A stretch of DNA of 64,000 nucleotides from Alphaproteobacteria bacterium (GCA_033763775.1 JANRJW010000005.1:9230-73229); one strand, 5' to 3'; numbered from the stretch's first letter, positions 3,661 through 10,720 are shown. Made by a program: numbers and translations. The notes: generated by a model not told the origin, from the sequence alone.

Positions 3661-4320
3661 GTGATGATTGACGAACTACGCATGGCTGAACTGCTTTCGA
3701 CCCGCCTGTGTCACGATCTGACGGGGCCTATTGGCGCAGTCAATAATGGTGCGGAATTTCTCAGCGAAGAAGGTGCGGGCATGCAGGCGCAGGCCGTGGA
3801 GCTGATTACCAGCAGCGCCTTTTCCGCGGTGTCGCGGCTGCAGTTTTATCGCATGGCGTATGGCCACGTCAAAGATCAGGGTGAAGCGAATCTTTCCGAA
3901 AAACAGCGTATCGCCGCAGATTTTTTTACCGGCAGCAAAATCTCGCTCGACTGGCCGGACAGCCACACCGAGGCCGCAGATGTTTCAATCAGTGTGAAAA
4001 TGTCGCGGCTGATTTTCAATCTGCTCATTGTGGCATCTTCCACACTCATTCGCGGCGGCAAGCTGATGGTACGCATCCGTCAGGATGAAGCAGGCCAGCG
4101 CCATGTTTCAGTGCAGGCCAGCGGCGCCGGCCTGAAATGGGAACCCGAAATGGAGCATATGCTGAGCGGCGCGGTTGAAACCTCGCAGCTGTCACCGAAA
4201 AACGTGCAGGTGTATCTCACCCGCCGCTTCGCAGAAGATCTTCGCAGCCGTGTGGAATATCGCATCGGTGCGGATGAAATGGAATTACTCGTCGTTCAAC
4301 CCAGAGCCCAGCAGGGCTGA
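3661..4320 (+). CDS. chpT: ChpT-family histidine phosphotransferase (HPt, PF10090-like)
   Basis: The motif LSTRLCHDLTGPIGAVNNGAEFL matches the ChpT phospho-His region (Caulobacter ARLCHDFISPASAIVSGLDLL). Downstream similarity continues (SSA...LQFxRxAxG, LDW). Size is about 219 aa. Confidence 0.7.
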   Translation: MMIDELRMAELLSTRLCHDLTGPIGAVNNGAEFLSEEGAGMQAQAVELITSSAFSAVSRLQFYRMAYGHVKDQGEANLSEKQRIAADFFTGSKISLDWPDSHTEAADVSISVKMSRLIFNLLIVASSTLIRGGKLMVRIRQDEAGQRHVSVQASGAGLKWEPEMEHMLSGAVETSQLSPKNVQVYLTRRFAEDLRSRVEYRIGADEMELLVVQPRAQQG

Positions 4321-4341
4321 TGGCACGCAGGAGGCAGGCAT

Positions 4342-7122
4342 ATGGATGATTTAATCAGTGAATTCATTACCGAAACAGTGGAATCACTCGCGCTGCTCGA
4401 TAATGAACTTGTCAATCTTGAGCAGAATCCCGATGATGTCGCGATTCTCAGCAATATCTTCCGCGTTATGCACACGATTAAAGGCACGTGCGGCTTTCTT
4501 GGGCTGCCACGCCTCGAAGGTGTGGCGCATGCCAGCGAAAACGTGCTGGGCAAAATCCGTGACCGTCAGCTGCAGGCCACACCACAGGCGATCAGTCTGG
4601 TGCTGGAATCGCTGGATTGCATCAAGGGCCTCATTGATCATCTCAGCGCCCATGGCAGCGAACCTGAGGGAAGTGATGATGAACTCAAGCGCCGCCTGAA
4701 CCATTTTGCCGAAACTGGTCAGGTGGAGACGGCTGCTACCGGCGCTACTGCCGCGCCCACACCGCCCGCTTCCAGCATGAATGGCACGAACGGCGCGCAC
4801 AACCCATTTCCATTTTTCAAAGGCGAGGACGACCCCGAAATTGCCGCCGCGATTGAAAAACTCATGGCCGAACAGACCGGCGCAGCACCTGCGGCGGCGC
4901 CAACGGCCGCTGCCGCAGCACCGCAAACAGAGGCTGTGCCGATGCCGAAAACCGCTGTGGCTGCTGCCAGCGAACCGGCCGCCGCCAAGCCTGCTCCGGC
5001 AAGCAAAGCCGCCGCGAAAACTGAAGATAAAGATGCAGGCGCCGGTGATTCCGCCAACCAGAGCATCCGCGTGAATATCAATGTACTCGAAAATCTCATG
5101 CAGATGGTCAGCGAGCTGGTGCTGACCCGAAACCAGCTGATGCAGATTGCCCGTACCAAAGATGACAAAGAATTTCTTACGCCTCTGCAGCAGCTCAGTC
5201 TGATTACCACCGAGCTGCAGGAAGGGGTGATGAAAACCCGCATGCAGCCGATTGGTAACGCATGGTCGAAATTCCCACGTCTGATTCGCGACCTGTCCAT
5301 GGAGCTGGGCAAAAAAATTGAGCTGAAGATGATTGGCGCAGAAACGGATCTTGATCGCCAGCTGCTTGAAGTTATTAAAGACCCACTGACGCACATGGTG
5401 CGAAATTCGTGCGATCATGGCCTGGAAACGCCCGATGTGCGCCGTGCCGCCGGCAAACCAGAAACAGGAACCGTAACACTTTCTGCTTACCATGAAGGTG
5501 GTCATATCATCATCGAGATTGCTGATGATGGTCGCGGCATCAACATCGAACGTGTGAAGCAGAAGGCGCTTGAAAATGGCCTTGCCAGCGAGGCCGAGCT
5601 GGCAGCGATGACTGAGAAGCAGATTGCCCAGTATATTTTTGCTGCGGGCTTCTCCACTGCTGAAAAGGTGACAGCTGTTTCCGGTCGCGGTGTTGGCATG
5701 GATGTGGTGCGTACTAATATTCAGAAAATTGGTGGCACGATTGATCTGGATTCCAGCTGGGGCAAAGGCTCAACAGTCGCGATTAAAATTCCACTGACAC
5801 TGGCGATTGTGTCGGTGCTGCTGGTGGAAGCTGGTGGGCAGAAATTCGGCGTGCCGCAGATTAATGTGGTGGAGCTGGTGCGTGTTTCGCCGGATAGCAG
5901 CCTTGCCATGGAAAAAATCAATGATTCATTGGTGCTGCGCCTGCGCGATAAATTGCTGCCGCTTGGCACACTTTCGCAGATGCTCGGCTTTAATGTCAGC
6001 ACTCAAGAGCTGATGCAGCGCGAAATGTACATCGTGGTGTGCAAAGTTGGTGCGTATGAGTTTGGTATTGTGGTTGACCGCGTGTTTGATACCGAAGAAA
6101 TCGTGGTGAAGCCGGTGGCGGAGATTCTCAAATCGCTCAGCATTTATTCAGGCAATACGATTCTCGGCGATGGCAGCGTGATCATGATTCTCGACGCCAA
6201 CGGCCTGGCACGTTCGGTAGGCAGCAGCGAGATGGCAACACGCTCTTCCGGTCAGGATGTGGCGGCGCTTTCGCTGGGCGCAGAAAACGAACATCTCATC
6301 AGCTTCCTGCTCTTTACCATGGGCAAAGGCGCACCCAAAGCGGTGCCCCTGGAGCTTGTATCACGCCTCGAAGAGGTGGATGTCAGCGCCATTGAAATTG
6401 CCGATGATTATCCGGTGGTGCAATATCGCGGTGAGCTGATGCGACTGGTCACGCTTGATGACTCTTTCTCCATTCCCAATACCGGCATGGTGGATGTGAT
6501 TGTTTTCAGCTACGACAAAAAAGTCATCGGTCTCGTGGTCAAAGATATTATCGATATCGTCCACGCGCCGTTTGATATCAAAATCAGCTCTAAAGATGCC
6601 AAGGAGCATGGCTATCTCGGTAGTATGGTGATTGCCGGAAAAACCACCGATGTGGTGGACGTGGCGCACCTGCTGTCTGACATGATCGGCGAGGTGGTAT
6701 CTGATGCACAGAAGAGCAAACATGCCGGACTTCAGGATTGCAAGCTGCTGCTGGTGGAAGATAGCCCGTTCTTCAGGAATCTCACCGTGCCACTGCTTTC
6801 TGCGGCAGGCTATAAAGTGACCGCCGCCGAAGACGCACGTCATGCACTTGATGAGCTGAGCCAGAAAAAATTTGATATGATTGTGACCGATATCGAAATG
6901 CCCGGCATGGACGGTTTTGATTTTGCCGCCGCCTGCCGCAGCAACCCGAACATCAACGGTATTCCGATTGTTGCTTACACCGCTACCGTCAGTGATGAAA
7001 TTATCAAACGCACCAAAACCGTCGGCATGCAGGACTGCATTATGAAAACAGACCGGCCGGGGCTGCTTGAGTCTGTCGCCCGCTGCCTGACCAGCCATGG
7101 CAGAAAGGAGATGGCCGCATGA
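4342..7122 (+). CDS. cheA: Chemotaxis histidine kinase CheA with C-terminal receiver domain (CheA-REC hybrid)
   Basis: Hpt P1 domain (VMHTIKGTCGFLG), Ala/Pro linker, dimerisation plus HATPase (DHGLE, DDGRGI, GRGVGMDVV), CheW-like P5 domain and a REC domain (KLLLVEDSPF...VTDIEMPGMDG...CIMKTD). SD AGGAGG lies upstream. Confidence 0.93.
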   Translation: MDDLISEFITETVESLALLDNELVNLEQNPDDVAILSNIFRVMHTIKGTCGFLGLPRLEGVAHASENVLGKIRDRQLQATPQAISLVLESLDCIKGLIDHLSAHGSEPEGSDDELKRRLNHFAETGQVETAATGATAAPTPPASSMNGTNGAHNPFPFFKGEDDPEIAAAIEKLMAEQTGAAPAAAPTAAAAAPQTEAVPMPKTAVAAASEPAAAKPAPASKAAAKTEDKDAGAGDSANQSIRVNINVLENLMQMVSELVLTRNQLMQIARTKDDKEFLTPLQQLSLITTELQEGVMKTRMQPIGNAWSKFPRLIRDLSMELGKKIELKMIGAETDLDRQLLEVIKDPLTHMVRNSCDHGLETPDVRRAAGKPETGTVTLSAYHEGGHIIIEIADDGRGINIERVKQKALENGLASEAELAAMTEKQIAQYIFAAGFSTAEKVTAVSGRGVGMDVVRTNIQKIGGTIDLDSSWGKGSTVAIKIPLTLAIVSVLLVEAGGQKFGVPQINVVELVRVSPDSSLAMEKINDSLVLRLRDKLLPLGTLSQMLGFNVSTQELMQREMYIVVCKVGAYEFGIVVDRVFDTEEIVVKPVAEILKSLSIYSGNTILGDGSVIMILDANGLARSVGSSEMATRSSGQDVAALSLGAENEHLISFLLFTMGKGAPKAVPLELVSRLEEVDVSAIEIADDYPVVQYRGELMRLVTLDDSFSIPNTGMVDVIVFSYDKKVIGLVVKDIIDIVHAPFDIKISSKDAKEHGYLGSMVIAGKTTDVVDVAHLLSDMIGEVVSDAQKSKHAGLQDCKLLLVEDSPFFRNLTVPLLSAAGYKVTAAEDARHALDELSQKKFDMIVTDIEMPGMDGFDFAAACRSNPNINGIPIVAYTATVSDEIIKRTKTVGMQDCIMKTDRPGLLESVARCLTSHGRKEMAA

Positions 7123-9933: not shown

Positions 9934-9999
9934 GCATTGGGGATTAGGCACTGGGGATTAGGTATAATGCCCTAATCCCTGATGCCTAATGCCTTTTTA
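9932..9999 (+). terminator. Rho-independent terminator between convergent cheR and ctrA
   Basis: Long GC-rich hairpin. The left arm holds two tandem GGCAYTGGGGATTAGG words (9932-9962) and the right arm is CCTAATCCCTGATGCCTAATGCC (9971-9993), followed by TTTTT (9994-9998). Confidence 0.7.
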
Positions 10000-10000
10000 A

Positions 10001-10720
10001 TCATGCCACTTCGCCCGCAACTTCGCGGCTGTCGGCGCTTTCGGCTTCCGGATCCTTCAGCACATAGCCGCGACCCCAGACTGTTTCGATATAATTATCG
10101 CCGCCGGCAGCGGTCGCCAGCTTTTTGCGAAGCTTGCACACGAACACGTCAATGATTTTCAGCTCTGGCTCGTCAATGCCGCCATAAAGATGGTTAAGGA
10201 ACATCTCTTTGGTAAGCGTGGTGCCTTTGCGAAGCGACAGCAGCTCAAGGATGGAGTATTCCTTGCTGGTCAGGTGCAGCGGCTTGCCATCCACCTCAAT
10301 CGAGCGTGTGTCAAGGTTAACAGCCAGTTTCCCAGTGCGAATGATTGATTCGCTGTGGCCTTTACTGCGGCGGACAATCGCCTGAATGCGGGCAATCAGC
10401 TCACCTTTGTTAAAGGGTTTGGTGAGGTAGTCATCCGCGCCGTAACCCAGACCTTTAATCTTCTGGTCAGGGCCGGAAAGGCCAGAGAGAATAAGAATCG
10501 GTGTGGTCACGCGGGCGGCGCGGAAACGGCGCAGAACCTCATAGCCATCAATATCAGGCAGCATCAGATCAAGAATAATGATGTCGTAATCGTAAAGTTT
10601 ACCAATTTCGAGCCCTTCTTCACCGAGCTGGGTGGTATCGCAGATGATGCCCTCAGACGCCAGCGACAGTTCAATGGCTTTAGCGGTGGACGAATCATCT
10701 TCAACTAATAGAACGCGCAT
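10001..10720 (-). CDS. ctrA: Cell-cycle / motility response regulator CtrA (OmpR family)
   Basis: MRVLLVEDD...[20 protein letters not shown]...DDYLTKPF...[51 protein letters not shown]...[11 protein letters not shown] is the highly conserved CtrA sequence. Confidence 0.93.

Follow-up and report, generated by a model that had tools for sequence, protein, structure and literature searches.

Analysis of a 64,000-nt stretch of DNA from the metagenome-assembled genome (MAG) of an uncultured alphaproteobacterium (GCA_033763775.1, JANRJW010000005.1:9230-73229; hereafter the window, with positions counted from its first nucleotide) revealed a gene for a ChpT-type histidine phosphotransferase at the head of a chemotaxis (che) operon that ends tail to tail with ctrA. 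ChpT accepts phosphate from the CckA receiver and passes it on to CtrA/CpdR. We consider it likely that the gene is the housekeeping chpT, positioned in an old chpT-che-ctrA-fliIJ neighborhood and coexpressed with an F5-class che operon from a CtrA-type promoter. The original prediction for this locus had proposed a possible phosphate relay from the chemotaxis kinase CheA through ChpT to CtrA and had named a housekeeping chpT as its fallback. The fallback is favored here because chpT is kept in loci without che genes, because che-linked and bona fide ChpTs interleave in a tree, and because the che-linked gene is the sole ChpT candidate detected in Azospirillum brasilense Sp7.

Organization of the chpT-che-ctrA locus

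The descriptive part of the original prediction holds. A ChpT-type gene is the first of a cheA-cheW-cheY-cheB-cheR unit in which CheA carries a receiver (REC) domain; the unit is arranged tail to tail with ctrA, and fliI and fliJ lie beyond. All of the predicted features were recovered in their places by matches to curated models (E-values of 1e-21 to 1e-194). The chpT gene extends on the plus strand from an ATG at 3664 (alternative GTG at 3661) to 4320 and encodes a PF10090 protein of 218 or 219 amino acids. Its stop codon is separated from the ATG of cheA by 21 nt, a gap in which no terminator was detected. The cheA gene (4342 to 7122, +), whose start codon is preceded by AGGAGG, encodes 926 amino acids with the Pfam domains of an F5-class hybrid kinase. 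It is followed on the same strand by cheW (7119 to 7604; PF01584, 100 bits), cheY (7604 to 7972; PF00072, 94 bits; NCBIfam CheY model, 79 bits), cheB (7994 to 9118; NF001965, 372 bits versus a cut-off of 293), and cheR (9121 to 9933; PF01739 and PF03705); successive genes overlap or lie no more than 21 nt apart. The stop codons of cheR and of ctrA (10001 to 10720, -; NF045991, 416 bits versus a cut-off of 350) are 67 nt apart. On the other side of ctrA lie fliI (10891 to 12246, +; TIGR03498, 644 bits versus a cut-off of 587) and fliJ (12332 to 12760, +; PF02050). No CheZ, CheC, or CheX gene was found in the window che operon.

The phosphotransferase is most likely an orthologue of ChpT

The 218-amino-acid protein carries the motif RLCHDLTGPIGAVNNGAEFL and, judged by its sequence and predicted fold, is most likely a ChpT orthologue, the histidine phosphotransferase of the CckA-ChpT-CtrA relay. 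Its match to PF10090 scores 77.4 bits (Pfam gathering score, 22.9), and it matches the Brucella ChpT 4QPJ (97 bits) and the Caulobacter ChpT 4FMT (52 bits) from end to end. Searching the Protein Data Bank (PDB) with an AlphaFold2 model of the protein (pLDDT 92, pTM 0.89) revealed seven ChpT structures as the top matches (TM 0.77 to 0.85, rmsd 2.7 to 3.0 Å), and the next matches were generic histidine kinases with a TM of about 0.5. The phospho-histidine, H17 in the 218-amino-acid form, is located on helix 1 and is invariant in 61 homologues.

Comparison with the NCBIfam ChpT models NF046018 and NF046025 gave full-length matches of 135 and 119 bits, which are under the respective cut-offs of 240 and 225 bits. 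These scores could be read in favor of a specialized ChpT paralogue that is dedicated to chemotaxis, with a separate housekeeping chpT elsewhere in a genome of which the window displays 64 kb. Such a paralogue is, in our estimation, very improbable. Paracoccus belongs to an order, the Rhodobacterales, with an experimentally studied ChpT. The Paracoccus protein scores still lower (85 and 77 bits), and the missed cut-offs are therefore a lineage effect and uninformative. The ChpTs of Sphingomonas (169 and 166 bits) and Azospirillum (131 and 112 bits) likewise fall below the cut-offs, and only that of Sinorhizobium meliloti exceeds one among the proteins compared (301 versus 240 bits). In a neighbor-joining tree, the bona fide ChpTs of Brucella, S. 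meliloti, Paracoccus, and Caulobacter interleave with the che-linked ones, and no separate paralogue clade is formed. A dedicated paralogue is also at odds with the finding, described below, that the gene outlives the che operon and remains beside ctrA. The 64-kb window contains neither a second PF10090-like open reading frame nor cckA or a CckA-like hybrid kinase gene, the sole other kinase there being PhoR-like.

Data from cultured organisms point in the same direction. A search of the Azospirillum replicons in PLSDB detected no second PF10090 locus. An orthology table for A. brasilense Sp7 places CckA and DivL on the main chromosome, CP012914, and lists ChpT and CtrA as missing from it (PMC8116508, supplement). 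The table was made with Proteinortho, which, as the authors of the table point out, can miss divergent ChpTs. The ChpT and CtrA genes of Sp7 are both located on the second replicon, CP012915, which holds the only PF10090 locus detected for this strain, upstream of cheA1.

CheA belongs to the F5 class and carries a C-terminal receiver

Pfam analysis of the window CheA revealed Hpt, H-kinase_dim, and HATPase_c domains, two CheW-like stretches, the second of them at residues 640 to 790, and a Response_reg domain at residues 803 to 907. The layout is P1-P3-P4-P5-P5-REC, with the P1 motif HTIKGT and without a P2 domain; the motifs VTDIEMPGMDG and CIMKTD both lie in the receiver. Over the core region, the protein is 57% identical to CheA1 of Azospirillum sp. 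B510. The same architecture has been reported for the F5 CheA proteins of A. brasilense, Rhodospirillum centenum, and Azorhizobium caulinodans (PMC10782961). By its Pfam domains and gene order, the window che operon is classified as F5 (Che1 type). The C-terminal receiver is a feature of the whole F5 kinase class.

The roles reported for CheA receivers all lie within chemotaxis (PMC10782961): the receiver serves as a phosphate sink in Helicobacter pylori, takes part in the dephosphorylation of P1 in A. caulinodans, and is required for taxis in R. centenum. By analogy, the receiver of the window CheA most likely functions within chemotaxis too, either as a sink for phosphate or in P1 dephosphorylation. 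The original prediction assumed a different role, in which the kinase behaves like CckA: phosphate would move from P1 to the receiver, then to the cotranscribed ChpT, and from there to CtrA or CpdR, so that chemoreceptors tune the level of phosphorylated CtrA. In a reverse variant, phosphate would leave the Che1 pathway, drained by ChpT together with a CckA that works as a phosphatase. Both directions of transfer appear unlikely. The receiver is intact, the donor architecture is that of a hybrid kinase, and the operon has no gene for a dedicated phosphatase of the kinds listed above, all of which would suit such a relay. The roles cited here, which are confined to chemotaxis, and the comparison of related genomes argue against it.

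The position of chpT upstream of cheA is ancestral and widespread

Related loci were collected by scanning the PF10090 alignment against one genome per species. This survey yielded 80 loci, all from MAGs, with identities from 83% to 36%; flanks of up to 10 kb were taken as context, and the window proteins were mapped onto each locus. Some of the MAGs are labeled Sneathiellales and Kiloniellales, and other relatives are labeled Rickettsiales bacterium. The relative at 83% identity has the same gene order as the window. The cheA gene directly follows chpT on the same strand in 52 of the 80 loci, one of which is uncertain since P1 alone is visible before the contig ends. A CheA remnant without a kinase domain follows chpT in 8 loci, whereas che genes are absent and chpT abuts or lies near ctrA in 10. 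Neither che nor ctrA was found near chpT in 3 loci, the order is rearranged in 1 (L056), and the remaining 6 are too short to judge.

Among the surveyed loci, the receiver is present in every one of the 44 complete kinase-domain CheAs. In 22 loci, the unit extends into ctrA(-)-fliI-fliJ, and ctrA is missing after cheR in about 12. CtrA identity is 84 to 98% across nearly all related loci and 70 to 77% in the most distant ones. The predicted pairing of chpT with cheA thus recurs in relatives, with at least 51 of the 80 MAG loci joined by cultured Azospirillum and Sphingomonas. For the same reason, the location of chpT cannot be called unusual, as had been supposed; its position is ancestral and widespread.

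Analysis of replicons from cultured organisms, by tblastn against PLSDB, revealed twelve Azospirillum records with a PF10090 gene and the same order around Che1. The annotated order in Azospirillum sp. B510 is a histidine phosphotransferase family protein, CheA, CheW, a response regulator, CheB, and CheR, then three small genes, CtrA(-), and FliI; its CheA has 933 amino acids with two CheW domains and a receiver. The gene order around Che1 of A. brasilense corresponds to that of strain B510. Sphingomonas parapaucimobilis carries chpT-cheA-cheW-cheY-cheB-cheR with a CheA of 774 amino acids that has no receiver, and ctrA is not next to the operon. In Paracoccus, chpT stands alone. In support of the housekeeping assignment, the bona fide ChpT gene of S. 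meliloti (CP090106.1) likewise adjoins ctrA and fliJ, in the order chpT, a gene for a 122-amino-acid REC-like protein, ctrA(-), and fliJ.

The S. meliloti REC-like gene (L087:4867-5235) is located where other lineages have the che operon, of which it may be a remnant. The usual acidic pair is missing from its product, which shares 30% identity with the window CheY and is unrelated to the receiver of the window CheA. CpdR was considered as an identity and rejected, as no NCBIfam CpdR match was obtained at E ≤ 1e-10. Further genes recur around chpT: a small DUF3553 gene, whose shared presence also speaks for orthology of the ChpTs concerned, adjoins it divergently in Azospirillum (L085:8666-8845) and Paracoccus (L089:3719-3898), and rpoH and rluA lie near it in Azospirillum, Sphingomonas, and S. 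meliloti. From this gene content, DUF3553, rpoH, and rluA are interpreted as remnants of a very old neighborhood around chpT.

chpT is retained where the chemotaxis kinase is lost

In DISCRIMINATING two readings, the co-occurrence of the adjacency with the REC fusion and the copy number of chpT were compared. The expectation that adjacency and fusion occur together was borne out as the usual condition; yet the two are separable in both directions. Sphingomonas has the adjacency despite a CheA without a receiver. Conversely, CheA-REC operons that share this architecture occur on replicons of Rhodovastum and Microvirga where chpT is not in the vicinity. The Rhodovastum atsumiense operon is located at 41 to 47 kb of the 220-kb linear plasmid RHOApa (L091), beside cheZ and cheY in a flagellar cluster. 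A CheA-fused receiver can therefore coexist with a dedicated phosphatase.

The loci without che genes or without the kinase domain are scattered over the neighbor-joining tree of ChpT, which implies roughly eight or more independent losses. In these loci, chpT remains a full-length open reading frame, and the phospho-histidine helix AE(L/M)LCTRLCHDLTGPIGAVNNGAEFL is essentially unchanged. The retention of chpT after repeated loss of che argues that ChpT is independent of CheA, because a dependent protein should be lost too. The argument bears on the proposed relay, since chpT with an identical helix persists both in the 10 or so loci without che genes and in those 7 of the 8 remnant loci in which the receiver is gone along with the kinase domain.

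The remnants themselves differ in form. Intact CheA open reading frames that lack the kinase domain are found after chpT at L015:10680-12416, L036:5127-6749, L037:10697-12430, L040:10960-12624, L043:10783-12426, L044:10736-12202, and L028:1001-2503, and in L042, where the frame is shifted. Lacking P4, most consist of P1-(P3)-P5-P5 followed by cheW, and cheY, cheB, and cheR are gone. The L028 protein has the layout P1-P5-REC and has lost the P1 histidine, whereas the other remnants keep HTIKGT. These forms arose independently at least three to four times, and the comparison of one close pair, L040 and L043, gave a dN/dS of 0.17. Speculatively, the kinase-less CheAs may be array scaffolds in cells where another che system supplies the kinase, or they may be stages of decay.

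In a test for coevolution, distance matrices from 30 genomes gave r = 0.71 for ChpT versus CheA-REC and a partial r of -0.01 when the other Che proteins were controlled for. There is no excess covariation in this exploratory test, which is crude and dominated by phylogeny and is weak evidence against the relay. Inspection by eye of receiver helix 1 in CtrA, CheA-REC, and CheY did not discriminate between them.

Predicted promoters and terminator suggest CtrA-dependent cotranscription

Analysis of the region upstream of chpT revealed a conserved element at 3577 to 3610 (+), composed of a CtrA-box-like TTTAC-N6-TTTA (3577 to 3591) and a -10-like AATAGTG (3604 to 3610). Its general form in related loci is TT(A/T)AC-N6-TTTA, with ATAGTG or TAGTCT about 12 nt on. 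The pattern TTWA-N7-TTWA is present in 48 of 83 chpT upstream regions, usually 60 to 115 nt before the start codon, whereas shuffled sequences gave 4.5 on average and 10 at most. We infer that the element is a CtrA-dependent promoter in which a CtrA-box-like sequence covers the -35 region.

The 170-nt divergent promoter region between ctrA and fliI contains two perfect CtrA boxes, TTAA-N7-TTAA, at 10733 to 10747 and 10783 to 10797. They are the only perfect ones in the 64-kb window, where 0.5 would be expected, and a box is found at the equivalent position in 20 of 29 related loci. The boxes suggest that CtrA regulates its own gene as well as fliIJ. Between the stops of cheR and ctrA, a hairpin with a U-run (9932 to 9999) is formed by the repeats GGGGATTAGG/CCTAATCCC; its folding energy of -34.5 kcal/mol (z = -4.5) was equaled by 0 of 200 shuffles, and the hairpin probably terminates transcription of both genes.

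Taken together, these elements suggest that chpT-cheA-cheW-cheY-cheB-cheR is probably transcribed as one unit that starts at the CtrA-box-like promoter and ends at the hairpin before ctrA. Cotranscription of chpT and cheA is likely in the window and in its close relatives, because the gap between the two genes is only 14 to 50 nt in the latter. In that case, active CtrA would increase the expression of its own phosphodonor as well as of the chemotaxis machinery, and CckA would be the phosphate donor to the window ChpT. The chpT-che linkage would thus be explained by shared CtrA-dependent transcription together with old synteny. Such a neighborhood is consistent with the regulation of motility that has been proposed as the ancestral function of CtrA (PMC8116508).

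A further possibility is that the adjacency is functionally meaningless, inherited as synteny while the genes use independent promoters and share no regulation. The spacing between chpT and cheA does vary in the survey, from overlap to more than 1 kb, with 3.6 kb in L082, and the rearranged locus and those without ctrA after cheR mentioned above are consistent with a loose arrangement. In addition, one clade (L039, L047, L050, L052, L054, L055, L057, L058, L061, and L064) has chpT-cheA gaps of 120 to 170 nt (about 405 nt in L054). Within these gaps, a promoter-like motif, GCGCTTTTCATTTCA ... GTGTAATATG, is conserved, as is CGCACAGGGAA immediately ahead of cheA; in this clade, cheA may have its own promoter. 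The short, terminator-free gap in the window, the conserved CtrA-box-like promoter ahead of chpT, and the same-strand order kept across orders speak for shared regulation, and a purely passive synteny is therefore judged unlikely.

Two regulatory genes are positioned upstream of chpT. The first (1427 to 2848, +) encodes a sigma-54-dependent activator of the NtrC family in which a weak REC domain lies at the N terminus (Pfam Sigma54_activat, AAA_lid_14, and HTH_8), for which no specific NCBIfam equivalog was matched; identity as FlbD was rejected, with 181 bits versus a cut-off of 750. The second (2770 to 3552, -), divergent from chpT, encodes an HTH_3 and Peptidase_S24 transcription factor (Pfam) that resembles the ECH_1013 family and remains below the cut-off of NF048000 (152 versus 300 bits). 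The two genes converge, with their 3' ends overlapping by 79 nt. Many related loci keep the activator gene upstream of chpT, and the S24/HTH regulator gene lies immediately upstream in about 35; the chpT promoter element is also kept in loci without the S24 regulator. The neighboring activator lent appeal to a candidate sigma-54 promoter, TGGCAAGTGCTGGGCA (about 3626 to 3641, -24/-12-like). It was rejected, as related loci do not share an equivalent motif there. The gene pair recalls AprX/XrpA of Cereibacter sphaeroides, in which XrpA is a sigma-54/AprX-dependent Xre repressor of ctrA and chpT (PMC11999139); XrpA differs in having 120 amino acids and no S24 domain.

More distant genes of the window include one for a PAS-4HB methyl-accepting chemotaxis protein (61259 to 63382, -), about 50 kb away from the che operon, and a tRNA gene (14472 to 14544, +) downstream of fliIJ and MFS genes.

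Weighing a housekeeping ChpT against a chemosensory relay

Several observations count against a housekeeping ChpT that is linked to che by regulation and ancestry. The evidence on PF10090 copy number and on cckA in this MAG covers the window, and the genome as a whole might hold a second PF10090 gene or lack cckA. The window copy of the chpT promoter element has two mismatches to TTAA-N7-TTAA, so that its recognition by CtrA is a prediction, and the separate promoter-like motif in one clade means that cotranscription of chpT and cheA is not universal. The receiver of the window CheA is nearer to hybrid-kinase receivers (TorS, RcsC, ArcB, and BarA; 67 to 85 bits) than to CheY (42 bits). Finally, chpT and cheA adjoin each other on the same strand in Sphingomonadales, Azospirillaceae, and the MAG clade alike. 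Adjacency conserved to such an unusual depth often marks proteins of one pathway. It is this depth, together with the hybrid-kinase-like character of the receiver, that keeps a phosphate exchange between CheA and ChpT alive as a minor possibility.

If such an exchange existed in the F5 (Che1-type) systems of early-branching alphaproteobacteria, either direction of phosphate flow would couple behavior to CtrA-controlled motility and cell cycle genes. Pleiotropic Che1 phenotypes have been reported in Azospirillum, including clumping and altered cell length, which an exchange between CheA-REC and ChpT could explain. The comparative result makes this link testable in the genetically tractable A. 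brasilense or R. centenum.

A housekeeping ChpT in an inherited, CtrA-regulated neighborhood is the reading that we prefer, and the comparison is of interest in this case as well. It indicates that chpT heads and ctrA closes a Che1-type operon in Azospirillum, in a large uncultured alphaproteobacterial clade, and partly in Sphingomonas. A concrete picture of an ancestral CtrA motility module is thereby obtained, consisting of chpT, che, ctrA, and fliIJ with CtrA boxes. Full-text literature searches of the searchable library found no mention of a linkage between ChpT and che1, and it may be undescribed; its parts all belong to families already described, and annotated Azospirillum genomes display the arrangement.

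Comparison with known systems

The window protein shares the PF10090 family and the two-domain kinase-like fold with the ChpTs of the CckA-ChpT-CtrA/CpdR relay, represented by Caulobacter CC_3470 (4FMT/4FPP) and Brucella ChpT (4QPJ/4QPK). The H-box (CHD..P.GA), a similar length, and an S. meliloti-like ctrA neighbor are further features in common with known ChpTs. Unlike the structurally solved ChpTs, to which it is 25 to 29% identical, it heads an F5 che operon, and its donor and acceptors are putative.

The window operon corresponds to Che1 of A. brasilense and R. centenum in the order cheA1(REC)-cheW1-cheY1-cheB1-cheR1 and in a CheA with two CheW domains and a receiver. Protein identity is 43 to 61%. 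The Che1 flanks in Azospirillum sp. B510 and A. brasilense are those of the window: a PF10090 gene precedes the operon, and ctrA and next fliI lie beyond it. Azospirillum differs in a chpT-cheA1 gap of 0.4 to about 1 kb and in small genes between cheR and ctrA. A. brasilense CheA1 has an N-terminal membrane domain that is absent from the window CheA.

In H. pylori CheAY2 and A. caulinodans CheA, the receiver is likewise fused C-terminally; those fusions act as a phosphate sink or as an aid to P1 dephosphorylation. The same role would be putative for the receiver of the window CheA, whose operon contains no dedicated CheY phosphatase gene.

Hybrid CheA kinases with other outputs are also known. 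The Wsp and Chp systems of Pseudomonas aeruginosa are nonmotility chemosensory pathways that signal through hybrid CheA kinases. A further hybrid CheA pathway with a nonmotility output is Che3 of R. centenum, with CheA3/CheS3 (PMC3868531). These systems show that phosphate from a CheA-REC hybrid can reach other two-component proteins, as it would in a relay from the window CheA to ChpT. They are not known to use a ChpT-type phosphotransferase or to target CtrA, and the window operon is orthologous to a bona fide chemotaxis system.

The kinase-less CheAs of some relatives, as distinct from the window CheA, resemble split CheAs, of which CheA3/CheA4 of Rhodobacter sphaeroides is an example. In those relatives, no partner kinase was identified, and cheY, cheB, and cheR are missing. 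A "bipartite CheA" has likewise been described (PMC10782961).

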